From an uncultured virus (IMG/VR IMGVR_UViG_3300046171_000301) (lineage: Duplodnaviria; Heunggongvirae; Uroviricota; Caudoviricetes): a stretch of DNA of 64,000 bases. The stretch lies in the IMG/VR virus record IMGVR_UViG_3300046171_000301; one strand, written 5' to 3'. Below the pieces are notes generated by a model, which was not told the DNA's origin, searched no databases, and saw nothing but the letters and a program-made list of their open reading frames with translations. Shown here one piece after another: positions 35,361 through 58,567 of this stretch (position 1 is its first letter; every line of letters starts with the position of its first letter). The translations under genes were made by a program, and so were the position numbers.

Positions 35361-35402
35361 TGTTCGCCATAAACCAGTAACAACAGCTACAATTAATATA
35401 TA

Positions 35403-35451: not shown

Positions 35452-35481
35452 GGAAATATAAACCTCTACTGGAAAATTTAA

Positions 35482-35667: not shown

Positions 35668-35714
35668 CTGCAAGGAACAATAGAATAATGAAAGCAACCC
35701 ATTGCTTATGAATA

Positions 35715-35906: not shown

Positions 35907-35909
35907 GCC

Positions 35910-35934
35910 AAGGCCCACTAATGTGGGCTTTTTT
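35910..35934 (+). terminator. intrinsic terminator
   Basis: GCCCAC-TAAT-GTGGGC-TTTTTT. Confidence 0.75.
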
Positions 35935-35954
35935 ATATTTTCTTATAAACTTCA

Positions 35955-36464: not shown

Positions 36465-36563
36465 GACACATATTATACTGTCTTTCCCCAATCATGGTCT
36501 AATTAGTTTATAGTTATTGAAGTGAAGAAATTTCACTAATCATTTATACCTACTATAAATTAA

Positions 36564-39110: not shown

Positions 39111-39632
39111 CTAACTAAATGAAGGTAAAGGCTCGTAGAATGATTCTGGAGAGGTGGTCGAGTGGTTTATGGCTCCAGTCTTGAAAACTGGCGTGTCTTC
39201 ACGGGCACCAGGGGTTCGAATCCCCTCCTCTCCGTTCAATAATTTTTGAAGACGCTTTATTGCTCGTTGTATTTGAAATGAGCTACTTTTTCTGTCACCG
39301 TTTTCTAAGCAATCAATAGCGTTATTGACGAAGCAACCAACTTGCAAATTAGCCATACTATTGTTATTGTGATTCCCATCGATATGACAAGCCTGTTCCC
39401 AGTTTTCAAGTTCTCTCCCCAGCTTTGCTGACAAGACCACTCTGTGAGAAAGCTTGCTTATACCAGTACCATGTTTGCATAAACGTACACCTAAACAACA
39501 ACGCCTTGCAGTTGTCTTGTTAAAGGTCCATTGTTTTAACACTTTTCTTTGTCCCTGCTTATATGAAATAAATTCTCCGCTTTCTGTTGCAAAGTATCCT
39601 TCATAGCCAGGAACAGGATATTCCCGTTCCAT
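39111..39632 (-). CDS. NUMOD4-type HNH homing endonuclease
   Basis: PVPGYEGY N-terminus; SHRVV, HIDGN..NN...NL. Confidence 0.85.
   Translation of the reverse strand: MEREYPVPGYEGYFATESGEFISYKQGQRKVLKQWTFNKTTARRCCLGVRLCKHGTGISKLSHRVVLSAKLGRELENWEQACHIDGNHNNNSMANLQVGCFVNNAIDCLENGDRKSSSFQIQRAIKRLQKLLNGEEGIRTPGAREDTPVFKTGAINHSTTSPESFYEPLPSFS
39148..39234 (+). tRNA. tRNA-Ser(TGA)
   Basis: GGAGAGG/CCTCTCC acceptor; CCAGT-CTTGAAA-ACTGG; long variable arm. Confidence 0.95.
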
Positions 39633-39732: not shown

Positions 39733-40596
39733 TTATCGTCTGACTTTCTTGATAGCTTCAAATTTATCTTCCAGTGGCCAAGTACCATAACGTGCGGTCA
39801 TGCCGAACACTCGATGACCCACCAACTTAGAAATCATAGAATCCTGACCGGGTAAGGCAGTCCGAGCACGGGTGATGAAATTATGACGGAGGCTGTGGGC
39901 CGCTTCTCCTTTAGGAAGATTACAGACTTCACGCAATTTTTCTGACCAGTTCTTGCCTGGATACCGAGTTCTATCCGTTTCGAGCCTTCCGACCCATGGA
40001 TAGAACTCAGGGTGAATTGGTACTTGACGCCGGGCACCTCGCTTGATCAGTCGATTGCTGTTGTCTTGAACTTGAAAATATGGAATCTTATTGTCAAATC
40101 GTATTTCGTTGTTGAGCAAGCCGGCAATTTCTCCGACGCGGAAGCCGTGATACCAGATGGCTAAAAACAGCGGGTCATCGTGGAAGTCTTTATAAAATTC
40201 AAATGGCCTGACTGGATACTCCTTTCCGTAGCGTTCAGCAGCTTCATCGCGATCAGTTTTAATTTTGCGGCTTGCTCGGTACCAAACATTAATTTCAGTG
40301 TCTATGAGCTCTTCTTCAATGGCCATCGCCCAAATGCCCGAAAGCAGACTCAAGCGACGACGTACTGTTTCAGCAGAGCAGTTACCAATTGGAGTCAGTT
40401 GAGATCTCCAGTAGCGGTTGACTAAAGTCTTATCGACGTCAGCGACTGAAATATTTTCAATCGGCTTTGCGGCTGTTCGCCAGCATTTGAACGTACTGTC
40501 GCGGACATGTGTCGTCTCACGAACAGCATCAAGCAGGTGTAGAACTTTCATAGGGCTGTGTTTGGGATATAAGCAACGCCAATCAATTTCTAACAA
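39733..40596 (-). CDS. tyrosine recombinase/integrase
   Basis: GFR..E, K, HSLRH, LVGH, T.RY catalytic residues all present. Confidence 0.92.
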   Translation of the reverse strand: MLEIDWRCLYPKHSPMKVLHLLDAVRETTHVRDSTFKCWRTAAKPIENISVADVDKTLVNRYWRSQLTPIGNCSAETVRRRLSLLSGIWAMAIEEELIDTEINVWYRASRKIKTDRDEAAERYGKEYPVRPFEFYKDFHDDPLFLAIWYHGFRVGEIAGLLNNEIRFDNKIPYFQVQDNSNRLIKRGARRQVPIHPEFYPWVGRLETDRTRYPGKNWSEKLREVCNLPKGEAAHSLRHNFITRARTALPGQDSMISKLVGHRVFGMTARYGTWPLEDKFEAIKKVRR

Positions 40597-40630: not shown

Positions 40631-40660
40631 TGACGGAGAGCGAGGGATTCGATCTCTCGG
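40631..40660 (-). other. att-like site: 3' fragment of a tRNA-Ser
   Basis: Minus strand CCGAGAGATCGAATCCCTCGCTCTCCGTCA resembles T-arm plus acceptor 3' strand; directly upstream of the recombinase. Confidence 0.65.
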
Positions 40661-42904: not shown

Positions 42905-43584
42905 TTGAACTAATTACAGGTTTTTAGGTTTATCTTCTTTAATATCTAAGGGATCAGAATTGCCACTTGTAATAGCACATGCACGTTTATAATAAAACGA
43001 ATCTTTTTTATTTGCTTTCTCTAGTGCTGTTTTTACTTTTTGCCAGTTTTCTAATGTATGTTTATCCATCAGGGTTAGAAGCAAGGTGTTCCATTTCTGC
43101 TGTTATCTGATCACTGAGAGCACTTACTTGAGCACATGCGCCAATGATTAAACCCCTCTGATTAGGAGTTAAGTTATCAGCATCTACGGCATCTTCAGAT
43201 AATACTTCTGAGATCTCTCCTAGTCCCATAATGATTGCGGGTAAGCCCCACTTTTCTATTAAAGAATTTAGTACAGATAGCAGAGGATTAGAGCCGCTTT
43301 CAATTGCTTCCCAGAATCGTTTACGCTGCTCAGAATCCATGAGAATTATCGCACAATTAGTTAGCTACAGGCTCTAACTCTTCTGCATCATCATTAACTT
43401 CGTCTTCAATGACTTCTTCAGGATCATACTCAAGCGTATCGATTAATTGACTCACAAGAGCGGCAGAAAAATTAACAAGAGTTGAATCGTTTGTTGCACG
43501 AGCTGTCGCAAAGGAATTAATAGCCGAGACTAATTCAGATTTTTTACAGGCCATGAGAATAAAATAGTGTCATTAATACTATAA

Positions 43585-45477
43585 CTAATCTAATGATTCT
43601 TTGAGAGATTTAACTTCGTCTTCTAGGGATTCAATTCTAAGCATTGCCTCCTGTAACGCGCCGACTGCTTTTAAATACAAAATAGAATATTTAACACGTT
43701 CTGTTTTAGTGCCAGTATTTTGGATTGTTTTAATCATTTTCTGATTACCAAACTCATCCAGCACTGGCATACCCATTTCGTCAAATTCAGGGGTTACAGT
43801 CTCTTGTACATCATTTATAGAAGTCACTAATCCGGGGCTAATTTGTTTAACTTCTTGGGATATCACGCCTAATTGTTGTGATGTCCCATAACCTAAAGAA
43901 GGTTTAAATTGATAGTTTACAAGCCTTATATTTTTTATATCATTCCACTGTGATTTTGCTGTACTAATATTGGTTTTTAACTTTTGATCAGATAATGCTT
44001 GATAAACATTGTTTGTATTTTCAACATCACCATTGGAATAAATAGATAGATTATTACTTGCAAACATTGCAGACCCATTTGCGTTAATCTCAGAAGTAAT
44101 TGTGCTGCCCTGCTTACCGGCTATAACTTTATCAAGATTATTTTGCCCTGTAATTTCAACAGTATTAGAGCATGTGATTCCATTACAAGTTACTGGACCA
44201 AAAGCACTATCGCCAGCAATGGTGGCATTGCCAATTATACTTATAGAATCACTATTTAGTGAGCCTGAAAAAACAGCAGAAGCTGCCTGAATATCTCCAG
44301 CAATTGTAGCCGACGCCGAACTAAGAGCACCAGTGAAACTCGCTGTAGATCCTGCAACTGCGCCATAATTTGAAGCGTTTAGGGCACCTGAAATATTAGC
44401 GGATGCTGCAGTGATTGAAGTCCCTACACTTATGCTTCCAGAGAAGGCACCATTAGTGAAAGATCCTGCACCGGTAGAAGTTAAATTGCTTGACAAGGTC
44501 AGAGATTGTGCGGTTATATTATCAACAACGCAAGTTGTCGCTAAAATATCTGAAACATTTATATCAACAAATGACGCTGTTCCGTCCGCATTAATACTAT
44601 ATTTTTCAATCCCGGCAGTATAACTATTAAGATCTCCATTAGCACTAATAGAGACTCCTTGATTATCTTTTACTCCAACAACTACTTCTGTTCCGAACAC
44701 TCCATTACCAGAAAATTCAGCAGACCCTGTGGCGTTAATCTCTACAGAAGGCGTATTTCCACCAATAATAATAGTGCCATCTGTTAATACTTCATATGTA
44801 GTTTCAAGGAGCTTCTTGCCCACATAGAGTTGATCAGAATAATTAGATCTACTAACAGTAATTGCATCGCTGGATGAAACACCCGCTAGTGTGATATTGC
44901 CAAATACTCCACTACCACTACCATTAATTGATGATGTTAGATTTCCTTGACTGTCATATCCTTCGTATATATTACCTGCATCATTGCGTTTAGCAAAAAG
45001 CATTCCATTCCTGAGACCACCACCAACCTCATTTGGTGCAGGACTTGCAAAGTCAACATTACCAACAAGAAGATTTCCTCTAAAGGTTGCATCACCAGTC
45101 TGGCCCTCTAATGACACCGTTGTCACACTCAGGTTTGTCTCAAGATTTAAATCACCAACAATATTATTATTGTCATTTGTCAGAAAAGGGCTCTCTAGTT
45201 CACTATTTGCATTAGCTCTAAACAATTTGCCGTTAGCATCTACACCAAGCACAGCTGGGCCTAAACCACTTAATGTAGAGATTGTGAGATCTCCTGACGC
45301 AATCGTATCTCCAGTCGTATTGACGTATGTGTCTTCTACAACATTTTGGCTATTAGCTTTCCAGAATCCATTCGGAAAAATGCCGGAATACTCATACAAG
45401 ACACCTTCGTGTGAATGGATCGGGAATGATGTGGGATTCTCAGTTGTAGACGGTAACGGAAAACTAATTCTTGCCAT
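43585..45477 (-). CDS. tail fibre with C-terminal peptidase S74 chaperone domain
   Basis: Gly/Ser/Thr-rich beta repeats; SDQKLKTNI, LGVISQEV, terminal coiled coil. Confidence 0.85.
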   Translation of the reverse strand: MARISFPLPSTTENPTSFPIHSHEGVLYEYSGIFPNGFWKANSQNVVEDTYVNTTGDTIASGDLTISTLSGLGPAVLGVDANGKLFRANANSELESPFLTNDNNNIVGDLNLETNLSVTTVSLEGQTGDATFRGNLLVGNVDFASPAPNEVGGGLRNGMLFAKRNDAGNIYEGYDSQGNLTSSINGSGSGVFGNITLAGVSSSDAITVSRSNYSDQLYVGKKLLETTYEVLTDGTIIIGGNTPSVEINATGSAEFSGNGVFGTEVVVGVKDNQGVSISANGDLNSYTAGIEKYSINADGTASFVDINVSDILATTCVVDNITAQSLTLSSNLTSTGAGSFTNGAFSGSISVGTSITAASANISGALNASNYGAVAGSTASFTGALSSASATIAGDIQAASAVFSGSLNSDSISIIGNATIAGDSAFGPVTCNGITCSNTVEITGQNNLDKVIAGKQGSTITSEINANGSAMFASNNLSIYSNGDVENTNNVYQALSDQKLKTNISTAKSQWNDIKNIRLVNYQFKPSLGYGTSQQLGVISQEVKQISPGLVTSINDVQETVTPEFDEMGMPVLDEFGNQKMIKTIQNTGTKTERVKYSILYLKAVGALQEAMLRIESLEDEVKSLKESLD

Positions 45478-45763
45478 TTATTTTTGCCAGTACTATCTTC
45501 ATTTTATCTAATAACTACTGATGTTTTTAGGGGCACTTCCAGTGGGATAATAGGGTTGTGGGATTCTAGGCAGCTCAGAAACCTTAATGTTCATAGTAAA
45601 TAAAAACCCGCCGTTTCTGACGGGATGAATGTAAAAGAAAAACCCCGCGATACAGGCCACTAGGAGTGTGGATAAGGACTTACGGAAGAACGAACCCCAG
45701 GTTTTACCAGGGCTAGCCACCGTATTCAGAAACTTGAAAGCCTCATCCATGGTTATATTTAGT

Positions 45764-45832
45764 TAGAACGGTGAGAGCCGGTTAGGCCGGGCCTACCTCG
45801 CGGCATGGCTCTCCACCCGGCCACTCGTTCTA
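45764..45832 (-). other. GC-rich structured element (candidate pseudoknot)
   Basis: Three 7-bp complementary pairs plus a GCGA-capped hairpin in 69 nt. Confidence 0.55.
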
Positions 45833-47785
45833 CTTAGCTTTAAGGGCTTCTACTTCAGCCTTAAGCTCAGCCACAGCGCCAAGAAGCTTCATCACAAGGA
45901 TGTCGTGATTAATAGCTTTGTAGCTGTCTTTACCTTCGCCAACCTCATACGTGAGTGATGGGCAAACTTCTTCAGCCTCTTGGGCAATAAGACCCAGGAA
46001 CCGCTTGGACTTCAGCTCTTCGTTAAGAGGAGCCTCTTCCTTCCAGTCCCAGTTCTTCAGGGAGCTGCCGAGAGTAACTACATCATCGAGCTGAGGGTGA
46101 GCGTCGGTAATGTTCTCTTTGAACTTGATGTCAGAGACGTTGCCAGCAGTGATGTTGCCAGTGAATGTGGCTGCTCCGCTATCGTTGAAGGTGATAACGT
46201 CAGCGCCTGAACTACCATTCCGGCCTGTATACAAAACGCCACCATTACCACCACGCGAGATGATCAATCCATTTGGCTGTAAATTAACGTAGTTTCCTGC
46301 TCCTTGCGTAGCTGCAACAGTACCAGAAAACACGCCACTGCCGTCGATAGCACTGAGCACAACTTTAGGGCCATTAAAGCTGCCGGTGGAATCAAGGTGT
46401 AAAGTACCTGATGAATACAAGTTTGTTTTAATAATACCAGCACTATCAACTACAAAGGACCCATTAGCAAACGAGGCACTGCCATCTGCGTTAATGGAAG
46501 CTGTATAGGCTGGAGTACCTTGCTGAAAACAAGCGAATGCTGAATCAGAAGAACCTGCTGGGCGAGTCGTGTAGACGCCACCCATGTCTTGAATCCAGCT
46601 GCCAGTTGCTAGCGAGGCGTTGTCAGAACCAGTCTTTACCAGGCCAGAGAACGAGGCGCTGCCGTCTGAACTTAAACTATATTTCCTTGATCCACCATTA
46701 AAACCTTCAAGTGCGCCACCAGATGTCATAAAGACGCCTTGACTATCACGAACACCTGCGACTACTTCTGAAGCAAACGTGGCGGTGCCGTTATTGAGAA
46801 TGTCAACAAAAGTGCTACTACCAGTAAATACTTTATAAGCAGAACCAGTTGGTTGATACCCAGACTGAAGCTCGTTCAAAAACGTTGCTTTAGACGTAAC
46901 ATTACCAGTAAACGAGGCGACACCAGCAGCAGTAACGTGGAAGTTTCTATTAGTACCCTGATAGCCTGCAAAAAGCAGCGTAAACGCGCTAGCAGTTTGC
47001 TGACATTGTGCCTTTACAGTGGCTGCATTAGCCGCCATATCCACTTGAGCACCATATCCAGTGCTTGAAGAAATGTCGAGTGGCCCAGCAGTTATATCTC
47101 CCGAGCTGTTGATGCGCATTCGCTCCAAATCGCTTGTCTCAAAACGAATATCTATTGCTGAAGAAGTACCAATCCTAAATAAATCAGCATTGTCATATTT
47201 AAAAATTCCAGTGCGCAAAACGCCGCTACTATTTTTACCAGTGAGATATAAACCAGATTCACCAGGAGTTGCTGTGCTAGTTGCCTTAATAATTGCACCT
47301 GAAGTTGAGGATTCTACATCTAAAAGTGAAGTAGGACTCGCAGTGCCAATCCCGACATTGCTAGCAAAAGTGGCGCTGCCGTTAGCACCGTCCAGGATAA
47401 TGTCGCTGTCTGTTGGATTTGCTGGAGAATAGCCAAAGTAGCATTTACCATCTGCAGTAAATACGTTACTAATCACTGAGGACTTAATATTAAGCAATGT
47501 TGTACTGTTATTCCCTATCGTTTCACTACCAATGATCGCGTCGTGTGCCTGCAAACGTTCAGCAAACGTGGCGCTGCCGTCTGTTGCGTTGAGTACAATC
47601 TTATCTGTTCCTAATGTTAAGTTGCCAGTTAAATTATCACCGTCAACATCGACAAATAATTCTGGCGCTGTTTGAGCAGTACGTACGGCTTTCCATATGC
47701 CGTTTGACCATTCATATGTAATCCCTGTGTCAGGATTTGTGTAACTAGTTTGTACGTTGGGATCTGGAAAATTAAGTGCGGCCAT
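45830..47785 (-). CDS. tail fibre with DGSAxF repeats and peptidase S74 domain
   Basis: VSDIKFKENI, LGLIAQE. Confidence 0.88.
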   Translation of the reverse strand: MAALNFPDPNVQTSYTNPDTGITYEWSNGIWKAVRTAQTAPELFVDVDGDNLTGNLTLGTDKIVLNATDGSATFAERLQAHDAIIGSETIGNNSTTLLNIKSSVISNVFTADGKCYFGYSPANPTDSDIILDGANGSATFASNVGIGTASPTSLLDVESSTSGAIIKATSTATPGESGLYLTGKNSSGVLRTGIFKYDNADLFRIGTSSAIDIRFETSDLERMRINSSGDITAGPLDISSSTGYGAQVDMAANAATVKAQCQQTASAFTLLFAGYQGTNRNFHVTAAGVASFTGNVTSKATFLNELQSGYQPTGSAYKVFTGSSTFVDILNNGTATFASEVVAGVRDSQGVFMTSGGALEGFNGGSRKYSLSSDGSASFSGLVKTGSDNASLATGSWIQDMGGVYTTRPAGSSDSAFACFQQGTPAYTASINADGSASFANGSFVVDSAGIIKTNLYSSGTLHLDSTGSFNGPKVVLSAIDGSGVFSGTVAATQGAGNYVNLQPNGLIISRGGNGGVLYTGRNGSSGADVITFNDSGAATFTGNITAGNVSDIKFKENITDAHPQLDDVVTLGSSLKNWDWKEEAPLNEELKSKRFLGLIAQEAEEVCPSLTYEVGEGKDSYKAINHDILVMKLLGAVAELKAEVEALKAK

Positions 47786-49530
47786 TGTTTTTTACCTAAG
47801 GTTAGAAATAAATAAGTTAATAAAAATCAGCTAGCCTTAAGGGCTGCTACTTCTGCTGTAAGCTCTTTTACAGCTCCAAGCAATTTCATGATCAATACAT
47901 CATGATTAATTGCTTTATAAGAATCTCCGTCTTGACCTGCGACTTCATAAACCATCTCAGGACAAATTGCTTCCACTTCTTGTGCAATCAGACCAAGCTT
48001 GCGTTGTGCCTTGAGTTCATCTGAAATAGGAGCTTCATCTTTCCAATCAAATGTCTTGAGTTTAAATGCAGATATGTCAGAAAGCTGCGAAGGTGCTGCT
48101 TCGATGTTCTCCTTAAACTTAATGTCGGAAACGTTGCCTGCGGTGATGTTGCCAGCAAACATGGCGCTGCCGTCAGCCTTAATTAAGGATGTAGGTGATG
48201 ACGTTCCAACAGTATATCCTTCAAATACAGAAGAAGTTCCGGAATTTTGAGCAGCTCTGATCGTTCCAAACTCGTTAATCGATGTTCCTCTTGCCGTACC
48301 AGAGTTAGGGTCGCCTCCGGATTGAATTTTGCTAGCAAATTCGGCGCTGCCGTCTGCTTTAAGCTGGATATTTCGGGAAGCACCAGTACCTCCAATTACA
48401 ACATCATTATTATAAACAGCGCTGCCATTTGCATATAATAGGAGACCAGCATTACCACCATTTGTGTAATCACCAACCTGTACTGTTTCAGCAAATTCGG
48501 CGCTGCCGTCATTGCCAAAAGCAATTACTTCGGTGTCTGTAGTGTTGATGAACTTGAAGTTTTTACTGGTTCCTTCAGCGTTATCCGTGTAAATATAGAG
48601 ACCACCATTGCTATACACCTTCACTCCAGAGTTAGACGATCCCGTGCTTGGATTGCCAACATCAAGATCTCCAGTAAACGAGGCGCTGCCGTCAAGACCA
48701 AGCCCGACGTTTACTGTCGAACCATCACCAGCCGTTGAATAGAACGCATATTGCTTACCACCACTGCCGGAGCCGATGAAGATTTGATTAGGAGAATAAC
48801 TCTGACAGTGAACGTAGTTAGCAAACGTGGCTCTGCCGTCGCCGTCAACTGAAAATGTAGTTGTACCGGAACTATTTGCACCAACGAACGGGAATTTTTG
48901 TCCGTTATTTCCACCACTGACTTGTGACTTGACACCATATGACGTTGGTGCCGTAAACGTGGCGCTGCCGTCGTGATAAATACTTACTGGGTAGCTACTA
49001 CTACTGCCGTTATAAACTCCGAAAGCACGAGCAGCAGCTCCTGTACCGTTTACGTATAAACCTGTATTGCCACTATTATCGAAAATTTTAGCGCCTGCAG
49101 TATTACTGGCATAGTCACCGACAGTAAGACCACCAGCAAACGTGGCGCTGCCACTGTCGAAGAACTCCACAACTTTAGTAGTACCACCAGAACCATCACT
49201 CTTGAAAAACTGAAGCCAGGGGTGAGTTTCGGTGGTTGAATGGAACAGCTTTAGATAACCCTCCAAACCAAGTGTGGAACCACTTCCATTAACTGAAAAG
49301 TTATTGTTTGGACCGCCGTTGATGTCTCCGGTAAACTTGGCGCTGCCGTCTGCATCTAATGTGATTGTCTCAACGCCAGTGTCTTGCCTATAACCACGGA
49401 AGAACACATCAGTGTTGCCGTTTGCCCTGGTTGCATACCACCAACCAGCTGGATTGAATTTGAAACCGGTGTCAGACGGACCAGCGCCATCTCCAATTTC
49501 GAATACACCAGCAAAACTCGCGCTGCCGTC
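46334..49530 (-). repeat. in-frame dispersed repeat GACGGCAGCGCC-NNN-TTT, about 16 copies
   Basis: Exact 12-mer (plus GGCGCTGCCGTC) at 46655, 47570, 48163, 48343, 48499, 48682, 48961, 49339; variants at 46334, 46475, 46781, 47372, 48418, 48829, 49144, 49519. Confidence 0.9.
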
Positions 49531-50742
49531 GTAGTTAAGATCTATGGTTGTGCCGCCTTCGTTACTGGTATTAGAAATTTTTAAAGCTGCATCAGTTCTG
49601 GATGAGGTGAAGTTGTATAAGTAACATCCGGCTGTAACAGAGCCAGTGTTTTTTGACCAGAAATACTCATCAGTGTTTACATAGCTATCAAACTCGGCGG
49701 GGCCGGTTACGTTCATGTTACCGGTAAATGTAGAATCACCAGTATGAGAACCACTAAATCCAATTGAATCAGGAGCAGGGGAGGCTTCAATCCAATACTT
49801 ACCACCAGGATCGCCGTTGGGTCCAATCGGATCTTGATACAAGATATACAGAGATGTATCAGAAGAATCTGAGTTCCACCACATTGTTCCTACTTCATAA
49901 TTAGCAGGTGTGGGAGGAGTGTTTGAAATAATTGTTTCACTGCCAACGCCTGTAAGCTGTGAGCCATCACCAATGAAAGCATTTGCGGTCAAATCACCGG
50001 AGATAACATCTCCTGATTTACTTACATACGCTGTAGCAGCGGTTGCTTCGCTTGTGCTAATTGCACTTGTTACATAGGTTGTATTAGCCTTAAGAGCAAG
50101 CTGAGTATTGACGTAAGTTGTAGCTGCTCTTGTAGCAATTTGTGCATCAATATATGTACGCAGGGTCGTGTCCAAACCTGTGACTTGTCCATCAACATAT
50201 TGCTTTGGTGTCGCAGCCAGTGCCTCTCCACCAGGATTGCCTGAAAGCAGCAGTGGGCCAGTCATTGTGCTGCCAGCTTTAGCTACATATCGTGCATCGC
50301 TTTCATCTTTATCATAATAGCCAGCGCCTAATGTAAAGCTATCAGGGCTAGCATCAACCCAGCTCGAATTATCGCCATCATAAATATATAAACGGCCATT
50401 GGATGTATTCCACCACAGCTCACCATTTTGACCTGTTGTTGGCGAACCAATAGAAGTTCTTGCCACACCACCAATAAAACTAGGAGCTGTCAAGTTTCCT
50501 GTCAGTGTTGAGCCAGAAAGACTTACATAACGATCATCAAGTGTTTCACCGGCAGGAACGTCAGGCACTGCAGACACTTGAAGTTTCTGAATAACATTGT
50601 TACTATCTTTCAGAAAAATTGTAGCATCGGTAGTTGCGTAGTTAATGGCTAACTCGCCATACTCCATTTGATCAACGGTAGGAGCCTGCGCGGTAATATT
50701 GTCTGTGAGTGTTTTAAGGCTTCTTTTAAGCTGTAATTTCAT
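47827..50742 (-). CDS. tail fibre with DGSAxF repeats and peptidase S74 domain
   Basis: GELAINY N-terminus, AATPKQYVD, VSDIKFKENI. Confidence 0.88.
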   Translation of the reverse strand: MKLQLKRSLKTLTDNITAQAPTVDQMEYGELAINYATTDATIFLKDSNNVIQKLQVSAVPDVPAGETLDDRYVSLSGSTLTGNLTAPSFIGGVARTSIGSPTTGQNGELWWNTSNGRLYIYDGDNSSWVDASPDSFTLGAGYYDKDESDARYVAKAGSTMTGPLLLSGNPGGEALAATPKQYVDGQVTGLDTTLRTYIDAQIATRAATTYVNTQLALKANTTYVTSAISTSEATAATAYVSKSGDVISGDLTANAFIGDGSQLTGVGSETIISNTPPTPANYEVGTMWWNSDSSDTSLYILYQDPIGPNGDPGGKYWIEASPAPDSIGFSGSHTGDSTFTGNMNVTGPAEFDSYVNTDEYFWSKNTGSVTAGCYLYNFTSSRTDAALKISNTSNEGGTTIDLNYDGSASFAGVFEIGDGAGPSDTGFKFNPAGWWYATRANGNTDVFFRGYRQDTGVETITLDADGSAKFTGDINGGPNNNFSVNGSGSTLGLEGYLKLFHSTTETHPWLQFFKSDGSGGTTKVVEFFDSGSATFAGGLTVGDYASNTAGAKIFDNSGNTGLYVNGTGAAARAFGVYNGSSSSYPVSIYHDGSATFTAPTSYGVKSQVSGGNNGQKFPFVGANSSGTTTFSVDGDGRATFANYVHCQSYSPNQIFIGSGSGGKQYAFYSTAGDGSTVNVGLGLDGSASFTGDLDVGNPSTGSSNSGVKVYSNGGLYIYTDNAEGTSKNFKFINTTDTEVIAFGNDGSAEFAETVQVGDYTNGGNAGLLLYANGSAVYNNDVVIGGTGASRNIQLKADGSAEFASKIQSGGDPNSGTARGTSINEFGTIRAAQNSGTSSVFEGYTVGTSSPTSLIKADGSAMFAGNITAGNVSDIKFKENIEAAPSQLSDISAFKLKTFDWKDEAPISDELKAQRKLGLIAQEVEAICPEMVYEVAGQDGDSYKAINHDVLIMKLLGAVKELTAEVAALKAS

Positions 50743-50804
50743 TGCTAAAAAGCTCCAATGGAAATAGAAATCTCATTAATATGATAACTATTTCTTGTCT
50801 CTAT

Positions 50805-51368
50805 TTATGCATAAACACCACTATCGAAGCTGATAGGATCAATATCAATAGCCATGTAATTATCGTTTACAGCTGTACCACACGGAAGAATTACAGCATC
50901 TACTGATGTTCTATCTGGTATGGTTGTCCAGTATCCAGGGTTATTGGCACTTAAATAGTATATTGATCCAACTTCTAACGTTGTAGCACCTTCATCTGTA
51001 ATATCAGCACAGTTAAATAAATCAATTACAGAATTCTGCGTGAATTGTGTGACTTGTCCAACATTAGCCGCTTCGGTTGCTACACCAACAATTTTTGCTG
51101 TACCTAAAGATAATGAACTCCCGGCTACTGCTTCATCTGCATCATTTAAATATATTAGCATTCCACGTTTTATTGGCTGACTAATGGCAGCCACTGTTGC
51201 TTGACCGTAAATAGGAATATTAGAGATTGTGGGAGTTTCAGTATTGCCACTACTATCATTATCAGAAAGCAGCCATGTTCCTGGACCTAGAGCCTGATTA
51301 GGATTTACGTAGACATATGTCCTTCCGAATAATGTTTTTGTATCTCCAATACTAGGCATCGCTTTCAA
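50805..51368 (-). CDS. virion structural protein (fibre-associated)
   Basis: Context and G..YYLS...G motif. Confidence 0.6.
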   Translation of the reverse strand: MKAMPSIGDTKTLFGRTYVYVNPNQALGPGTWLLSDNDSSGNTETPTISNIPIYGQATVAAISQPIKRGMLIYLNDADEAVAGSSLSLGTAKIVGVATEAANVGQVTQFTQNSVIDLFNCADITDEGATTLEVGSIYYLSANNPGYWTTIPDRTSVDAVILPCGTAVNDNYMAIDIDPISFDSGVYA

Positions 51369-51604
51369 TCCACTTTGTTAAATTACCTTCAACAGCTTCT
51401 TTAGCTACTGCAGTCAAGAGGTGCTGATACACCATGATTAGCCTTGAGGTTTCTTTGAGATGATCTTTCAAAGATTCCACGTCATTGCAATTATCAATTT
51501 CATCATTGATAACTCTTAATCGTAGTTCAGACTCCAACGGTATTTTGAAGTCACTGTCTTTAAACATATGAGTTACATACGATCTATATCTTTAGTATAA
51601 GCAT

Positions 51605-51633
51605 TAAAAAAGAGCCTGCGTTAGCAAGCTCTT
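51605..51633 (-). terminator. intrinsic terminator
   Basis: Minus strand GAGCTTGC-TAAC-GCAGGCTC-TTTTTT. Confidence 0.75.
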
Positions 51634-51643
51634 AGTGCATAAT

Positions 51644-52204
51644 TCATGGATTACTTCCAGTAACCTTTAATGTCATATCAACAACTGAATTGCCAGTACC
51701 TGCAGAAGCTATAAAGTCAGCTAGCGCTGCTCCATTAGTTCCACCAAGTCCCATAGAAATCATTGAGAACTCTATGAACGTATCTAATTGACTAGGTTCG
51801 TAGTGATTTGCAGTCAAGGTGTCTAAACCTTGTTGCATCACTGCTTCTTCGTAATCATTAACTGTACCAACGCTTACATCTAGCACATTTGCATAGTTGT
51901 ATTCGTCAGACGTTTCGGAAACTTCTTCTTCAGAGTTGAGCCCGAAGGTCCCCTCCCAAGAGTAGAAGTTGTTGTTTGCGGCAGTGAAGACAATGGATCG
52001 ATCTGCAGTTCTCCATGTATCCATGCTGGCACGATCTTTAAAGTGAATAAAGAATGATGTGCCGGTGAGATCTCCAATTTGATCGATTCCGAAGTTTTCA
52101 TATAGGTCTTCCCCTGAAGAGAAGACCTGATATGAGACGTCGAACCCATTGCCATCAACCGCAGAGGTTGGTGTGAAGGCAAAGGTCGCACCCGCCGTAC
52201 CCAG
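51644..52204 (-). CDS. probable readthrough extension of the giant fibre (or separate gene from ATG 52024)
   Basis: Open and in frame with the upstream gene from its TAG for 186 sense codons. Confidence 0.65.
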   Translation of the reverse strand: MGTAGATFAFTPTSAVDGNGFDVSYQVFSSGEDLYENFGIDQIGDLTGTSFFIHFKDRASMDTWRTADRSIVFTAANNNFYSWEGTFGLNSEEEVSETSDEYNYANVLDVSVGTVNDYEEAVMQQGLDTLTANHYEPSQLDTFIEFSMISMGLGGTNGAALADFIASAGTGNSVVDMTLKVTGSNP

Positions 52205-55200
52205 CTACTCAGTTTCGAGGAAGGATTTCTCGATAGATTTAAGAGCACCTGTAGCTTTGTCAATCACAAGGAACAGATAATTATCTGTGCCTGTGCCGTC
52301 AACAGGAACTGAATCAGCAGTTGTTTTACCAACTAACTGAGCGTTCACACTATCACCAATCGCAACCTTAGTGTTATCAGCGGCGATACGTGCAGCTTCT
52401 TCGTCAGAAATTGCGGTAGCGTTTGCGGTAATGTTGGTTGTATTAGTGCTTACGTTTCCTGAGATAGTGGCGTCAGCTGCCTTATAGGCTGCATCCAGAC
52501 CAGACACTGCAGTGACACGAGCAGCAGTTTCATCTGCAATAGCAGTTGCATTAGTTGCAATGTTTGCGGTATGTGTATTGTCTGCTGCAATACGTGCATT
52601 TTCTTCAGCAGCAATTGCTGTAGTACGTGCTGATGCTTCAGCGGCATCAGCGGCAATACGAGCAGTTTCTTCTGCAGAAATGGCGGCTGTGTTAGAAGCA
52701 ACGGTGCCGTTCGTGAGAGCCAAGATTGCGTTAGCGCGAGCTGTAGCCTCTGCAGTTACAGCAGCTGAGCGATCAGCGATTTCCTGATTCAAGTTAGCTG
52801 TCAGAGTATTATCTGCAGCTATACGAGCAGCCTCTTCAGCAGAAAGTGCAGTTGCTGTTGTGGGATCCGCTTCTAAAACATCTAAGCGACCTGACAGCGC
52901 AGAGTCAGCAGAAGTCCGAGAAGTAGCTTCAGCAGTCAGCAATGTCTGAGTTGTAGGATCAGCTTCAAGAGTGTCCAGTCGGCCAGACAGTGCTGTATCA
53001 GCATTTGTACGTGCTGTTGTTTCAGTAGCAATTGCAGCTGCATTAGTAGCAATGCCAGACAGGTCAACACCAGCAACCAGGTTATCAGCGTAAAGCTTGT
53101 TAACCAGGTGTGCATCAGCTGTAGGAGCTGTAGCAGCAGAAATCAGACCAGTGAAGGAGGCTGTACCGTCAACACCAATGGTTGAAGATGCTCCTCCTGA
53201 TGTTGTGAAAGTCTGCCCATCAACAAGTCGTGTGCCATCAAGGATAATACCAGCCAATCCTGTCCAGTCGCCAGGGCCAGAAACAATCGTAATTGCCGTA
53301 ATTTGATCGCCAAACAGGGCATATGGATTGTTAACAACAGTCTTACCGAGAAGATTAAGTGTGTTTGGGGTAAGATTGACCGCTACCTCTCCGTTACTAG
53401 TAGTAAAGGACATGCTGCCATTACTTTCTGTGTGGTAACCCTTCTGATAGTAAGCAATCAGTTCAAGGGTACTTGTCGAAGTAAGAGGGATTGGATTATC
53501 AAGTGTGAAGGTTGCAGTTGAGCTAGTTCCACCACTTATGCTGGGCTGGAAGCCCCACATTTCACCCATGGCGTCACCTTCTTCTCCATTAGTGGTGAAG
53601 ATTTCTGTAACTTCATAACCAGCTCTTACAGGTCCAACTACTGTACCGTCGCTCCAAGTAACTGTGCTTGAAGTTGCACCTACACCCATCTGAATAGCAC
53701 CTGACATTGTGCCACCAGCCAGAGGCAGGAGCAAAGCATCAGCAGCTTGACGTGCGGTGGCTTCAGCAGTAAGCAGTGTTTGAGTTGTGGGGTCTGCTTC
53801 CAGTACATCTAAACGTCCAGACAGAGCTGAGTCTGCTGAAGTACGGGAAGTAGCTTCTGCGTCAATGTTGGACTGCAGGGTTGTGTCAGCACCAGCGCGA
53901 GCCGCAGCTTCTGAATCAATGTTTGATTGCAGAGTTACATCAGAGTTCTGGCGAGCAGTTGTCTCAGTGGCAATCTGGTTTGTAACGGTAGTCGAGAAGT
54001 TCTCGTCATCGTTAATCGCATTTGCCAACTCGTTAAGAGTATTCAGCAGATCAGGTGCGCCGTTAGTAAGTGCTTCGATAGCAGCTGCGTTGGTTGCAGC
54101 TTTGCTGTCCACATACAGCTTGTTGGTCAGATGCTCATCAGCTGTGGGAGCTGTAGCAGCAGAAATCAGTCCAGTGAAGGAAGCTGTACCGTCAACACCA
54201 ATTGTCGCTAATGAAGACGTAGCACCAGAGAGTCCTGGATTTTCGGTAGAAGCTGCAATAGACCCAAAGCCTGTAAGTGTCTTACCTGTTGCCTCTTCTG
54301 TTGCTGATTCAGAGGATTGGCAGCACAGAAGTTCTGTTGATGCAATCGCTTCAAGGTTTTCAGTTGGAACGGTAAAGTCAGCAGTGTAAACAGAAGATCC
54401 ATTTACAAAGCGGGCATTAGAAATGAATCCTTTAAAGTATTCGCTGCCGTAACCGTAGCCAATAACCAAAGCGGATATTTGATCTGCGCTTGCGTCAACG
54501 ACTTCCCAGACTTTCACTCCATCGACAAATGCACGTACAGTTGTACCTTCTTTTGTCAAGGCAACATGTGCCCATTGATTAAAGGAAACCGTACCAACCC
54601 CTCCACTGCTCTGGGCTTGAGTGAAGAATTCCCATGCACCATTGCGTACACGCATGTGGAAATATTCACTGCCATGAGTACTTTCGTTTGCACCCATAAT
54701 TCTGTAGGTGCCACTAGAATCTCCAGTGGGATACACCCAAGCTTCCATACTCCAGTTGGAATCTGCCGCTAATGTTCCAGGACCAGCAACTGACAGATAG
54801 TCATCAACTCCATCAAATTCAACTGAACCTGAAGTACCAGATGCTGCAGTTGCACCAAATTCAATGGCACCAGACATAGTGCCACCAGCCAGAGGCAATA
54901 GCAGAGCATCAGCCGCAATACGAGCAGCCGCTTCAGCGTCAATATTTGACTGAAGTGTAGTATCGGCAGATGTACGAGCGTTGGCTTCTGCAGTGACTGC
55001 AGTTGTACGATCACTGACTTCAGTAGCCAGATTTGTTGTCAGAGTGTTGTCTGCTGCAATACGTGCTGCAGCCTCTACATCAATGTTGCTTTGCAGAGTT
55101 GTGTCAGCAGCAGAACGGGCAGTAGCTTCGTTCGATACTGCAGTTGTACGATCACTGACTTCAGTAGCCAAGTTGGTCGTCAGTGTGTTGTCTGCAGCAA

Positions 55201-58200
55201 TACGTGCAGCAGCCTCAGAAGTAATGCTTTGCTGCAGATTTGTGTCACCGGTTTGACGTGCTGTTGTTTCAGCCGCAATCTGACCAGTAATTGTGGCCGA
55301 GAAGTTCTCGTCATCGTTGATTGCTTCAGCTAACTCATTCAGTGTGTTGAGAAGCTCAGGTGCTCCACCAACAACAGCTTCAATCGCAGCTGCGTTACTA
55401 GCAACTTGAGTGTCCACATACAGCTTGTTAGTCAAATGTGCATCAGCTGTAGGTGCTGTTGCAGCAGAGACCAGACCAGAGAATGAAGCCGTACCATCCA
55501 CACCAATAGTTGAAGCTGCACCTGAGCTACTACCATCAACAAGAACAACGCCGTCAACTTCAATTCCAGTTACTGCAAGGCTAATTCCATTATTGACTTC
55601 AAAACGAATGTTTTGCAGTCCTGACGCAGGTAATGTGGTCAGGGTGTCGAACGCGTTTGCACCACTCATGGTTTGAGTGACTTTGTCAGCTAAACCATAG
55701 TTAAGACAATAGGTGCCACCCATTCCCCAGTTACGAATACGAACAACTGAAGAACTGCTAATAGCGCTTGGGAAATTATAAAGAACAGCTTGTCCTGAAC
55801 CAGCACTTGTAATTGTTGTTAAATCTCCATCAAAAGCATTTTCTGGATTATTAACAGTTTGAACAAAACCAGTGCTGTAAGTTACACCTGCTGCTGAGCC
55901 CATCTGAATAGCACCAGACATGGAGCCACCAGCCAAAGGCAAGAGTAATGCGTCAGCTGTAATACGTGCGGCTTCTTCAGCAGAAACGGCTGTTTGACGG
56001 TTGCTAACTTCAGTAGCCAGATTTGTTGTCAGAGTGTTGTCTGCAGCGATACGTGCAGCAGCTTCTGCGTCAATGTTGGACTGAAGTGTAGTATCTGCAC
56101 CAGAACGAGCGGTGACTTCTGAATCAATGTTGGACTGAAGTGTTACGTCGGAGTTCTGACGTGCAGTTGTTTCTGCAGCAATTTGATTAGTAACGGTAGT
56201 CGAGAAGTTTTCGTCATCGCTAATTGCTTGAGCTAACTCATTCAATGTATTGAGCAGCTCAGGTGCACCACCCACGACAGCTTCGATAGCAGCTGCGTTA
56301 GTTGCCGCTTTGCTGTCCACATACAGCTTGTTCGTCAGATGTGCATCAGCGGTCGGAGCTGTAGAGGCTGAAACCAACCCGGAGAAGGATGCTGTACCGT
56401 CAACACCAACGGTTGCGTTGCCGCCAAAATCAATAGCACCACTCATAGTGCCACCAGCCAGATCAAGCTTCAGTGCGTCAGCTGCAATACGTGCTGTCTC
56501 TTCGGCGTCAATATTGGATTGAAGGGTCGTATCAGCAGATGTACGGGCAGAAGCTTCAGCAGAAACAGCTGCAGTGCGATCTGTAACTTCTTGCGCTAGA
56601 TTAGTTGTCAGGGTGTTATCGGCAGCTACACGTGAAGCAGCTTCTGCATCAATGTTGCTTTGCAGAGTTGTATCAGCATTTGTACGTGCTGTTGTCTCAG
56701 CAGAAATTGCAGCTGCGTTAGTAGCGATACCGGAAAGATCAACACCAGCAACCAGGCTGTCTGCGTACAACTTGTTAACCAAGTGTGCATCGGCTGTAGG
56801 TGCTGTAGAAGCAGAAATCAGACCGTCAAATGAAGCTGTACCATCCACATTAAGAGTTGCGGCGCCTTGCACAGTACCTGTGACAATAACTCCGTCAACT
56901 TCGATTGCGTGAATATCATAACGAGTGCGAGTGCCGTTGTAAGGAACAGAAATTCCCTCGAACACAAAAGGCGCACCGTTCACTCCAATCACAGGAAGTG
57001 TCAGCCACTCGCCCCCATTGGTTGTAACAGCACCCTCAGAGTAACCAACGTTACCACTGGCGGTATGAAGTGTCATACTCGTGGAACTGTAGTTATAATC
57101 TCCAGCAAAAGTGCTCTTACTCGCATACACACGTAATGTCGAGTTGACTGTAATCGGGTTAAACCTCAAAACCCCGGAGCTTGCCTGCAGGACAACAAAT
57201 GAATTCAGATCGCCGTCAAACGCACTTTCGGCAGATGATCCATGCTTTATGTTGTCGCCATGAGGGTTAATGGAACTGAAGTCCATACCACCAGATCCCA
57301 ACTGAATAGCACCAGACATGGTGCCACCAGCCAGAGGCAACAGCAGAGCATCAGCAGCTTGACGTGCCGTGGCTTCATCAGTTACAGCGGCAATTCTTGC
57401 TGCAGCTTCAGTGTCAATATTAGACTGAAGCGTTGTGTCAGCAGAAGCGCGTGTAGAAGCCTCACTTTCTTGTGCACTTTCAAGTGCTTGCAAAGCCTGC
57501 TTAACACTTGTGTTGTCGTTAATTGTAGAACCAGAGAAGGTACCCAAGGTTGTGCTACCTGTGCCCATACCAGTCAGGGTTTCTAAATTATCAACATCAT
57601 CTTCAACGTCACTAACAGCATTAGTACGTGCTGTTGTTTCAGCGTCAATATTGCCCTGAAGAGTGATGTCAGCGGCACTACGAGAAGCGGCCTCTGCTTC
57701 AAGAGCAGTCTCTAACAGTTGAAGAGCAGCTTTAATGTTAGAAGCATCAACAATAGTTGAACCTGTGAATGAGCCAAGATCAACAGAACCGGCTGCCAAA
57801 CCACTCAGTGCTACTAAGTCATTAGCATCAGACGTGACTGCATTCAAAGCAGTTGCATCACCCTTAGTCTCAACCTTAGTTTCGAGATCTTGCAGAGCGG
57901 TCTTGATGTCAACTGAATCACTGATTGTAGATCCAGTAAATGAGCCGAGATTTGTAGAATCTTTTGCAACACCTGTTAGTGTTGCCATGTTATCAACGTG
58001 AGTTTCATTTCCGTTGATTAGATTTGTAATTGTTGTTGAGAAATTACTATCTGCTCCGAGAGCATCAGACAGTTCTTTTAAAGTGTCTAATGCAGCAGGA
58101 GCGCCGTTTACTAGCGCATCAAGTGCAGATGTAACATATGATTCAGTCGCGAAGCCATTCAGAAAATTACCAACGGAGATGCTCTTAGAAGCATAAGAGA

Positions 58201-58291
58201 CGCCGCCATCAGTAGTATCTGACAAATAAAGGAGATCGTCAGCCGACGCCTCCCCTGTGGTCAACAGACCAGATACTTTGTAGGAAGCCAT
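52205..58291 (-). CDS. giant repetitive fibre protein (2028 aa), coiled-coil shaft with inserted globular domains including LamG/ConA-like
   Basis: ARxxAD heptad repeats, APELLNTLNELA, HLTNKLYVD; W.HVAL...FKGFISNAR LamG motif. Confidence 0.88.
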   Translation of the reverse strand: MASYKVSGLLTTGEASADDLLYLSDTTDGGVSYASKSISVGNFLNGFATESYVTSALDALVNGAPAALDTLKELSDALGADSNFSTTITNLINGNETHVDNMATLTGVAKDSTNLGSFTGSTISDSVDIKTALQDLETKVETKGDATALNAVTSDANDLVALSGLAAGSVDLGSFTGSTIVDASNIKAALQLLETALEAEAASRSAADITLQGNIDAETTARTNAVSDVEDDVDNLETLTGMGTGSTTLGTFSGSTINDNTSVKQALQALESAQESEASTRASADTTLQSNIDTEAAARIAAVTDEATARQAADALLLPLAGGTMSGAIQLGSGGMDFSSINPHGDNIKHGSSAESAFDGDLNSFVVLQASSGVLRFNPITVNSTLRVYASKSTFAGDYNYSSTSMTLHTASGNVGYSEGAVTTNGGEWLTLPVIGVNGAPFVFEGISVPYNGTRTRYDIHAIEVDGVIVTGTVQGAATLNVDGTASFDGLISASTAPTADAHLVNKLYADSLVAGVDLSGIATNAAAISAETTARTNADTTLQSNIDAEAASRVAADNTLTTNLAQEVTDRTAAVSAEASARTSADTTLQSNIDAEETARIAADALKLDLAGGTMSGAIDFGGNATVGVDGTASFSGLVSASTAPTADAHLTNKLYVDSKAATNAAAIEAVVGGAPELLNTLNELAQAISDDENFSTTVTNQIAAETTARQNSDVTLQSNIDSEVTARSGADTTLQSNIDAEAAARIAADNTLTTNLATEVSNRQTAVSAEEAARITADALLLPLAGGSMSGAIQMGSAAGVTYSTGFVQTVNNPENAFDGDLTTITSAGSGQAVLYNFPSAISSSSVVRIRNWGMGGTYCLNYGLADKVTQTMSGANAFDTLTTLPASGLQNIRFEVNNGISLAVTGIEVDGVVLVDGSSSGAASTIGVDGTASFSGLVSAATAPTADAHLTNKLYVDTQVASNAAAIEAVVGGAPELLNTLNELAEAINDDENFSATITGQIAAETTARQTGDTNLQQSITSEAAARIAADNTLTTNLATEVSDRTTAVSNEATARSAADTTLQSNIDVEAAARIAADNTLTTNLATEVSDRTTAVTAEANARTSADTTLQSNIDAEAAARIAADALLLPLAGGTMSGAIEFGATAASGTSGSVEFDGVDDYLSVAGPGTLAADSNWSMEAWVYPTGDSSGTYRIMGANESTHGSEYFHMRVRNGAWEFFTQAQSSGGVGTVSFNQWAHVALTKEGTTVRAFVDGVKVWEVVDASADQISALVIGYGYGSEYFKGFISNARFVNGSSVYTADFTVPTENLEAIASTELLCCQSSESATEEATGKTLTGFGSIAASTENPGLSGATSSLATIGVDGTASFTGLISAATAPTADEHLTNKLYVDSKAATNAAAIEALTNGAPDLLNTLNELANAINDDENFSTTVTNQIATETTARQNSDVTLQSNIDSEAAARAGADTTLQSNIDAEATSRTSADSALSGRLDVLEADPTTQTLLTAEATARQAADALLLPLAGGTMSGAIQMGVGATSSTVTWSDGTVVGPVRAGYEVTEIFTTNGEEGDAMGEMWGFQPSISGGTSSTATFTLDNPIPLTSTSTLELIAYYQKGYHTESNGSMSFTTSNGEVAVNLTPNTLNLLGKTVVNNPYALFGDQITAITIVSGPGDWTGLAGIILDGTRLVDGQTFTTSGGASSTIGVDGTASFTGLISAATAPTADAHLVNKLYADNLVAGVDLSGIATNAAAIATETTARTNADTALSGRLDTLEADPTTQTLLTAEATSRTSADSALSGRLDVLEADPTTATALSAEEAARIAADNTLTANLNQEIADRSAAVTAEATARANAILALTNGTVASNTAAISAEETARIAADAAEASARTTAIAAEENARIAADNTHTANIATNATAIADETAARVTAVSGLDAAYKAADATISGNVSTNTTNITANATAISDEEAARIAADNTKVAIGDSVNAQLVGKTTADSVPVDGTGTDNYLFLVIDKATGALKSIEKSFLETE

Positions 58292-58294
58292 TTA

Positions 58295-58567
58295 CTATTC
58301 CAGAATAAGAAATTGGGTACCCTCTAAAGTTTGCACTTTTGAGTTCAAATCTATTATATCTGCCTGCAAGTTCGTCACTAACAAATTAAGGCTGTCTAAC
58401 TTACTTTGTATGTCGTGCAAATCTGTAATTTCTGACTCTGTATGAGTATGGTCATCTTCTGGCGGACGTACTTGCCAAACGCCTCTTACATATTCCCAGG
58501 TTTCACCTGTAGCGTCATTAGTGACAACCGTAGTGACATTGGGATCTGGAAATATAAAAGGACTCAT
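58295..58567 (-). CDS. small fibre-associated protein
   Basis: FPDP N-terminus shared with 45830..47785; HTH.ESEITDL motif. Confidence 0.7.
   Translation of the reverse strand: MSPFIFPDPNVTTVVTNDATGETWEYVRGVWQVRPPEDDHTHTESEITDLHDIQSKLDSLNLLVTNLQADIIDLNSKVQTLEGTQFLILE

Follow-up and report, generated by a model that had tools for sequence, protein, structure and literature searches.

The IMG/VR record IMGVR_UViG_3300046171_000301 represents an uncultured marine cyanophage carrying psbA, and the stretch analysed here (64,000 nt, hereafter the window) covers most of its genome. The tail fibres correspond to four large minus-strand open reading frames (ORFs) at 43.6-58.3 kb, of which those of 630, 651 and 971 amino acids (aa) end in a Peptidase_S74 domain. 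Two of these, the paralogues g971 and g651, are divided into variable modules by a short motif that is conserved in its codons as well as in its peptide. In g971, an N-terminal part is followed by 10 motif copies bounding 9 variable modules (44-65 aa) and by the C-terminal Peptidase_S74 domain. We propose, with a probability of roughly 0.7, that fibre modules are shuffled by recombination at this codon-locked motif of 21 nt, which would serve as a joint of short homology. The fibre genes and domains concerned, with two in-genome controls, are listed below.

47827..50742, minus strand: g971, the 971-aa tail fibre (ORF, Pfam PF13884, PHROG tail-fibre families, motif copies)
47947..48129, minus strand: Peptidase_S74 intramolecular chaperone domain of g971 (Pfam, residues 872-932)
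45830..47785, minus strand: g651, the 651-aa tail fibre and paralogue of g971 (7 motif copies, C-terminal Peptidase_S74)
45953..46135, minus strand: Peptidase_S74 domain of g651 (Pfam, residues 551-611)
52205..58291, minus strand: giant fibre of 2028 aa, in-genome control (five GVDGTASFxG copies with drifting codons)
43585..45477, minus strand: g630, a 630-aa fibre with an S74 domain, control (NANGSAMFAS and similar peptides in other codons)

The C-terminal PF13884 matches all lie over the gathering score (E=7e-12 for g971, 1.5e-6 for g651 and 3e-9 for g630), and the sole sequence match in the PDB is the MYRF ICD-like chaperone-like domain (E=3.6e-5). The giant fibre also contains a Laminin_G_3 (concanavalin-like) domain at residues 1160-1297 and several long internal repeats, many segments of which match one 500-nt stretch of the closest relative, the 67-kb IMG/VR contig L024, at 70-85%.

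The core of the motif is the 12-mer GACGGCAGCGCC, which has 8 exact matches in the window, all on the minus strand (46655, 47570, 48163, 48343, 48499, 48682, 48961 and 49339), and none in any of 100 dinucleotide shuffles. Allowing up to two mismatches, 18 matches were found where 1.52 are expected; 14 of these are on the minus strand within 46334-49530 and the other four are scattered on the plus strand. The wider 21-nt consensus GACGGCAGCGCCNNGTTTGCT reads GAC GGC AGC GCC NNG TTT GCT and encodes the peptide DGSAxFA. When up to 6 of the 19 specified bases are allowed to differ, it occurs as 17 in-frame direct copies, 10 in g971 and 7 in g651, with zero off-frame copies and zero on the other strand of the two genes. 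The commonest codon dominates at each position: GAC in 11, GGC in 16, AGC in 11, GCC in 15, TTT in 16 and GCT in 10 of the 17 copies. The variable x codon ends in G in 13/17 copies, compared with 12.6% G-ending codons elsewhere in both genes. All copies, on the minus strand, are as follows.

49687..49707: degenerate g971 copy ACCGGCCCCGCCGAGTTTGAT (TGPAEFD); the similarity of L138 stops at 49703 and that of L024 at 49689
49510..49530: M1, GACGGCAGCGCGAGTTTTGCT; partner of the degenerate g651 copy at 46907..46927 in the contig joint 46916->49520
49330..49350: M2, exact 12-mer; left edge of the one-module L142 block (84.7%)
49135..49155: M3, AGTGGCAGCGCCACGTTTGCT; the L142 block has its right edge here, and the 981-nt in-frame deletion joint its upstream end
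48952..48972: M4, exact 12-mer
48820..48840: M5, GACGGCAGAGCC... (DGRATFA)
48673..48693: M6, exact 12-mer; a contig of run X2 leaves the window sequence at 48694
48490..48510: M7, exact 12-mer; its first base is the start of the 96% L024 block of 959 nt
48334..48354: M8, exact 12-mer
48154..48174: M9, exact 12-mer; the 981-nt deletion joint has its downstream end here, sharing GTTTGCTGG, and at 48175 one X6 contig leaves the window sequence
47561..47581: first g651 copy, exact 12-mer; right edge of the L024 (47553) and L140 (47561) blocks
47363..47383: g651 copy AACGGCAGCGCCACTTTTGCT; the in-frame deletion joint of 717 nt has its upstream end here
46907..46927: degenerate g651 copy GCTGGTGTCGCCTCGTTTACT (AGVASFT); partner of M1 in the joint 46916->49520
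46772..46792: g651 copy AACGGCACCGCCACGTTTGCT; left edge of the 92.5% L140 block
46646..46666: g651 copy, exact 12-mer; right edge of the 92.5% L140 block and downstream end of the 717-nt joint
46466..46486: g651 copy GATGGCAGTGCCTCGTTTGCT; left edge of the 77.6% L140 block
46325..46345: g651 copy GACGGCAGTGGCGTGTTTTCT; right edge of the 77.6% L140 block

Successive motifs in g971 are spaced by 180, 195, 183, 132, 147, 183, 156 and 180 nt. The DNA between them cannot be aligned. Tandem Repeats Finder returned 0 rows for 43000-58400, because the units are too diverged. An earlier inspection of the letters, here called the sequence-only reading, had reported 8 exact recurrences with about 8 mismatched ones, spacings of 132-195 bp in multiples of three and dissimilar intervening sequence. 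All of this agrees with the counts above, although the multiples of three are trivial since the copies share one reading frame.

The codons of the motif are fixed far beyond the codon bias of the genes that carry it. Outside the motif, g971 uses GAC at 25%, GGC at 29%, AGC at 15% and GCC at 9%, and its GC content at third codon positions (GC3) is 0.33. Nevertheless, 8 of the 10 DGSA sites read GACGGCAGCGCC, against a chance of 0.0019 per site under the pooled usage of both genes (binomial P=7e-21), a number reached in 0 of 200000 simulations. On the basis of usage, GC3 and simulations, gene-wide or donor codon bias was rejected as the cause of the locking in this window. Among the 17 motif copies, identical residues are encoded by identical codons in 521 of 617 comparisons (0.84). 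The corresponding values are 31/71 (0.44) for the paralogous C-terminal domains of g971 and g651 and 34/62 (0.55) for the giant fibre with its five GVDGTASF copies. Over one stretch of 17 aa the peptides of g971 and g651 are identical, but 8 of the 17 codons differ; the peptide alone therefore does not freeze the codons. Similar peptides in the neighbouring 630-aa and 2028-aa fibres are likewise written in varying codons. Thus two further statements of the sequence-only reading, namely that synonymous sites are fixed within the motif and free in the neighbouring fibres, hold up against the codon usage of the genes themselves.

Comparison with related contigs shows that stretches of shared fibre DNA are often bounded by the motif. 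L024 shares a block of 959 nt at 96% identity with window positions 48510-47553. This block starts at the first base of the copy at 48510 and stops just beyond the copy at 47581-47561, with unrelated sequence on either flank. It runs from the last two modules and the S74 domain of g971 across the intergenic spacer into g651, of which it includes 67 codons from the start of the gene. Another L024 block (82.6%) and a block of the metagenome contig L138 (92.6%) both stop at the degenerate copy 49707-49687. L142 shares exactly one module with the window, from motif to motif (49349-49122, 84.7%), and otherwise resembles L008, save between two motif copies of the L008 fibre. The 1786-nt contig L140 contains two modules of the 651 type in the reverse order of the window, followed by a C-terminus of the 971 type. 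Each of its three shared blocks is bounded by the motif on at least one side, and the third starts at the start of the S74 domain. In the next gene of L140, one module matches a module of the L024 gene of the 971 type at 97.9% identity. Therefore, modules have been reordered and moved between the two paralogous genes. When every block with an identity of 77% or more is counted, a motif copy is found no more than 15 nt away from 12 of the 23 internal edges, against an expectation of 17.6% (P=1.8e-4).

Junctions of other kinds were observed as well. The similarity of the metagenome contigs L140 and L141 begins exactly at 48129, the first residue of the Peptidase_S74 match and 25 nt beyond the last motif copy. 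Mosaic junctions of a second kind thus lie where the chaperone domain begins. One L024 block edge at 49998 coincides with a different conserved fibre peptide, LTANAFIGDGSQLTG, and not with a DGSAxFAG joint; a similar peptide, LTGNLTAPSFIGG, is present near 50500. In the N-terminal region, peptides of the LTANAFIGDGSQLTG type may form another class of joint. In addition, window positions 50462-50756, the N-terminal part of g971, are 70% identical to L024 positions 816-1113, the N-terminus of an upstream fibre gene of 1102 aa. As this is a different fibre gene, N-terminal attachment parts have also been exchanged between fibre genes.

Variants of the same kind occur within seawater populations. 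Logan contigs from four seawater or viral metagenome runs, belonging to four studies, were compared with window positions 45700-50800, and gaps in contig cover were left out of the evidence. Five joints were reported, with 10/10 joint ends at motif copies (P=3e-8). The joint 46654->47372 drops 717 nt (239 codons) in frame across 11 shared bases, ACGGCAGCGCC. It is present in runs X3 and X6, from two studies; record 25 of X6 has 0 mismatches and a shorter side of 196 nt. The joint 48151->49133 drops 981 nt (327 codons), again in frame, across the 9 shared bases GTTTGCTGG, and is supported by record 19 of X3 (1270 nt, 0 mismatches). Logan contigs are, we assume, built from 31-mer graphs, so that a repeat of 9-11 nt could not create joins during assembly. 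Loose contig ends also fall at motif copies in 11 of the 24 cases shown, from a total of 59 (P=1.3e-3).

The motif is not restricted to this phage. A search for the 20-mer GACGGCAGCGCCNNGTTTGC gave 23 stretches, from 21 IMG/VR contigs, in which the locus GC content is 0.39-0.59 and a single fibre ORF often has 2-6 copies. Further copies in the same ORFs that had not been selected by the 20-mer use the same codons. A codon-blind scan for ADGSAxFAG, limited to open frames of at least 150 aa, gave 55 in-frame sites. Fourteen of them carry the exact 12-mer, where 0.39 are expected, and every other codon variant occurs at most twice. The 12-mer is shared by contigs with no other nucleotide similarity. 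Ten of the scanned ORFs hold at least two DGSAxF copies: six use the dominant codons and each of the other four has a uniform word of its own, for example GATGGCTCCGCT or GACGGCTCTGCG. Of four codons, 3.09 are identical within an ORF and 1.66 between ORFs, while the modules between these dialect copies are 31-64% identical. This points to sequence identity among copies, rather than one specific sequence, as the property that matters. Such dialects fit homology-driven exchange and argue against a sequence-specific enzyme.

A tblastn search with the repeat part gave a single weak match, to Synechococcus phage ACG-2014i (47% over 15% of the query), a T4-like cyanomyovirus with related modules that lack fixed codons. 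In this genome (L164, KJ019082.1, 165917-170107) a structural protein ends in modules akin to the last modules of the window, of the types GDPNxG...FxGY and LDSTGxF; module families therefore cross phage morphotypes. The literature search, which left out most subscription journals and all supplements, found no earlier account of the motif or of codon-locked fibre linkers.

Across the window and 12 other loci, 49 motif-to-motif units can be aligned on one pattern, in which short hydrophobic strands occur together with glycines, and with the motif ends stripped they cluster mostly as singletons. One module family recurs at differing positions across fibres, including three places in the window. 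A profile-free search retrieved 378 cluster representatives at E<=1e-3 and 115 at 1e-10, most of them matching the last module. AlphaFold2 predicts an all-beta monomer for residues 400-871 (mean pLDDT, the predicted local distance difference test score, 65.2) and is confident solely at about 330-470 of the query, which are the last two modules. In this model the motif is a predicted turn (DG) plus strand (SAxF) between strands of neighbouring modules. Foldseek returned nothing in the PDB at E<=0.001 for the AlphaFold2 model; its weak top rows were the T4 gp34 fibre, Rhs repeats and OspA.

Based on these observations, a mechanism can be proposed. In both paralogues, the peptide DGSAxFA encoded by GAC GGC AGC GCC NNG TTT GCT would form a turn plus a strand and thereby connect each beta-rich module with the next. 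With identical codons in all copies, every module boundary offers 9-21 bases of GC-rich exact homology, and the modules themselves would have diverged past DNA recognition. Homology-dependent recombination could then join any boundary with any other, by crossing-over, single-strand annealing or template switching during phage replication, within one gene, between both fibre genes or between co-infecting phages. All products would be in frame with the structural joint intact, and receptor-binding modules would be deleted, gained, replaced or reordered, possibly with an effect on host range. DNA-level sites for in-frame exchange of fibre modules were the core inference of the sequence-only reading as well. 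The motif-bounded mosaic blocks and the contig joints support it: in alignments of homologous fibres the breakpoints are enriched at the motif, and module order is not fixed, L140 carrying g651-type modules rearranged.

Several points weigh against this proposal or limit it. Eleven of the 23 block edges lie off the motif, at 48129 (the S74 start, twice), at the gene end 47843, at 49998 and inside C-terminal domains. At the other fixed-codon loci only 4 of 20 edges are at the motif and most of the others are in C-terminal domains, although this all-versus-all comparison had few informative pairs. Selection for proteins that fold, instead of a preference at the DNA level, could account in part for blocks that end at module boundaries, and BLAST extends matches through the shared motif, by which the exact crossover point is blurred. 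All runs consist of assembled contigs rather than raw reads, so the joints carry no rate estimate, and three of the five joints are weak, with sides of 21-46 nt and unknown letters between. One of these three, 46916->49520, ties the first g971 motif (M1) to a g651 copy. The dialect comparison is small (4 ORFs, 11 pairs). No Erf, RecT or Rad52-like recombinase was found in the window using Pfam and PHROGs, and the recombination-related matches there are an exonuclease, a primase-helicase and HNH endonucleases only. Lastly, the data fit selection for recombinability and passive homogenisation alike.

Passive homogenisation is the basis of the explanation that comes closest to ours. The motif might be no more than a conserved structural peptide, its codons alike as a by-product of repeated gene conversion or unequal exchange among the copies, or of its spread along with modules of a GC-rich donor. 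Recombinability would then be under no selection, and junctions would lie at the motif merely as the sole homology on offer. GAC GGC AGC GCC are indeed the default codons in GC-rich genomes. The 20-mer occurs in bacterial genome contigs as at least 120 single copies, mostly in GC-rich sequence (median GC 0.63) and with 98/120 in the DGSA frame; these matches were dismissed as evidence on fibres, being the ordinary codon bias of GC-rich DNA. Also, codons that are uniform within a gene and different between lineages are what concerted evolution would produce. However, the modules around the motif have a GC3 of 0.33-0.37 and are therefore not recent GC-rich imports, TTT, GCT and the G-ending x codon are fixed without being GC-rich defaults, and the 12-mer is common to contigs otherwise without nucleotide similarity. 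We regard this by-product explanation as rather improbable; it agrees with the proposed joint on recombination at the motif and differs solely on whether the locking is adaptive. A constraint on translation, in which fixed and partly rare codons (GCC, ACG, TCG) slow the ribosome so that the preceding module folds, has little to recommend it. GCC (9%), ACG (9%) and TCG (7%) are rare in g971 outside the motif and recur at each boundary. On the other hand, GGC and GAC are not rare, the two control fibres of the same genome have a similar peptide in free codons, and 41 of the 55 codon-blind ADGSAxFAG sites in other phages lack the 12-mer. Nor do the motif codons correspond in any particular way to the tRNAs that the phage has for Asp (gtc), Ala (tgc), Thr (tgt) and Ser (tga), and junctions within the motif are left unexplained.

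Site-specific recombination was considered too. On this view, the tyrosine recombinase at 39733-40596 would cut and rejoin the copies as attC- or sfx-like sites, or an HNH endonuclease of the phage would break them and so promote exchange. The window holds one tyrosine recombinase gene and three HNH endonuclease genes, and the core GGC-AGC-GCC is able to form a 3-bp stem. The sequence-only reading had drawn a bulged hairpin here and suggested an integron- or shufflon-like mechanism, with either this recombinase or micro-homology as the agent. The hairpin can be drawn, but folding gives it no support. As single-stranded DNA, 15 copies of 27 nt have minimum free energies of -1.3 to -5.6 kcal/mol under DNA parameters, with a mean of -2.8 compared with -2.2 for 300 random synonymous recodings per copy, and the predicted structures are inconsistent from copy to copy. 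An attC-like hairpin was rejected on these weak and variable folds, which are no better than those of the recodings. Shufflon-type inversion was rejected as well, all 17 copies being direct on the minus strand with zero inverted. The junctions lie in the 5' half of the motif (ACGGCAGCGCC), in its 3' half (GTTTGCTGG) or run from ACGTTTGCT, without a single fixed point, and other lineages carry other nucleotide versions. The recombinase itself stays under the Pfam Phage_integrase cut-off (26.6 vs 27.1 bits), although it matches the integrase family phrog_1 of PHROGs at E=1.9e-18. No integron integrase (IntI) model matches it, the best NCBIfam models being of the XerC/XerA type at 16-18 bits against cut-offs of 220-335, and it adjoins a copy of a tRNA-Ser end. 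We consider such a site-specific system highly implausible. Of the two agents suggested by the sequence-only reading, the data favour micro-homology, and Pfam, NCBIfam and the tRNA-Ser-end setting provide no evidence for the integrase as the agent of module exchange.

From its family matches, the integrase at 39.7 kb is a generic phage tyrosine recombinase. Directly upstream of it, the 20-nt stretch 40633-40652 is an inverted 85% copy of the 3' end of tRNA-Ser(tga) (39147-39235). A copy of a tRNA 3' end beside an integrase is the usual layout of a tRNA-targeting integration module, and this stretch looks like an attP core for a host tRNA gene. The tRNA-Ser(tga) gene overlaps an HNH-endonuclease ORF (39111-39632) on the opposite strand. 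A diversity-generating retroelement was rejected: PHROGs and Pfam revealed no reverse transcriptase family among the ORFs scanned, and the motif repeats are short joints rather than template/variable pairs.

Based on PHROGs and Pfam, the window encodes psbA, a transaldolase, a plastoquinol terminal oxidase, a ribonucleotide reductase, a thymidylate synthase, a primase-helicase and the integrase. Host-like genes are located at 9083-15207 and 33766-36941 and include the transaldolase, psbA (D1), a 2Fe-2S ferredoxin, the plastoquinol terminal oxidase and a cyanophage outer-membrane-protein-like beta barrel (PF24653). Eight tRNA genes were found, six of them clustered at 9727-11106, and a tRNA-Leu lies at 13652. 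The family-A DNA polymerase is split: its exonuclease part (31933-32457) overlaps a separate ORF for the polymerase part (32450-33751), with an HNH endonuclease ORF upstream (28719-29558). The polymerase is about 46% identical to the polymerases of the T7-like cyanopodoviruses S-CBP42, Syn5 and NATL1A-7. A 586-aa ORF of the late region and the fibre DNA had no match among 50,697 GenBank phage records (the fibre region by blastn). A T7-like cyanophage polymerase is combined here with structural genes that are unmatched in isolated phages.

Marine Synechococcus and Prochlorococcus are controlled by phages whose host range is set by their tail fibres. Short conserved linkers as the driver of modular exchange in phage genes were reportedly proposed by Botstein and, later, by Krisch and co-workers, and Tetart and co-workers are said to have described conserved-motif exchange in T-even tail-fibre adhesins in 1998. 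To our knowledge, this linker idea rests mostly on T-even coliphages. The locus described here is a clean, countable linker case in uncultured ocean phages, with a defined joint of 21 nt, a codon-level signature that separates DNA-level from protein-level conservation, lineage-specific variants, and deletion and swap variants visible across independent seawater samples. The linker hypothesis becomes directly testable by recoding the joint, which also serves as a rule from nature for designing chimeric fibres in laboratory phages. More tentatively, and with more doubt than confidence on our side, the joint of marine cyanophage fibres might be an evolved recombination 'grammar', having one exact word per boundary and differing words that define separate exchange communities. 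If true, in-frame shuffling, loss and gain of modules would take place at high frequency within populations, as a viral counterpart of exon shuffling or modular cloning selected for host-range evolvability, possibly with help from a yet unrecognised phage nuclease or annealing protein.

Among known systems, integron attC and shufflon sfx sites are also repeated short DNA sites that bound exchangeable units. An attC site is a folded single-stranded DNA hairpin and sfx sites are inverted repeats, both specific to their recombinases. Unlike these, the motif described here shows no hairpin and no inverted orientation, and no matching recombinase was found in the window. The PeSL cassettes of T4-type phages are nucleotide-conserved short repeats serving as sites of modular shuffling; Arbiol et al. 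(2010, PMC2839356) describe them as promoter/terminator cassettes between genes, with whole genes as the units that move and mini-circles as products. In contrast, the present motif is coding, in frame and moves modules smaller than a gene. Phage recombinases produce mosaics by homology-dependent exchange over short or diverged stretches, as De Paepe et al. (2014, PMC3945230) describe for temperate coliphages whose recombinases are Rad52-like. The window differs in that no Rad52-like recombinase was found in it and the homology spans only 9-21 nt.

The closest known system is the motif exchange of T-even adhesins, involving the His boxes of gp37 and the glycine-rich motifs (GRMs) of gp38. According to Trojet et al. 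(2011, PMC3157838), short conserved motifs separate hypervariable segments in these adhesins, and crossovers in or near the motifs swap specificity. Like the His boxes and GRMs, the short motifs of g971 and g651 bound mostly unrelated segments of receptor-binding proteins, with recombinant junctions in or beside the motifs. Unlike in T-even adhesins, the proteins are S74-type fibres of an uncultured cyanophage, the motif is DGSAxFAG, and up to 10 copies per gene are distributed along the shaft and not clustered at the tip. The evidence comes from natural sequence variants, not from experimental crosses, and adds locking tested against a null, codon dialects, natural in-frame deletions and module transfer between paralogues. 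Conserved-motif exchange is thus already known from T-even phages; new here are the codon locking and its lineage-specific dialects.

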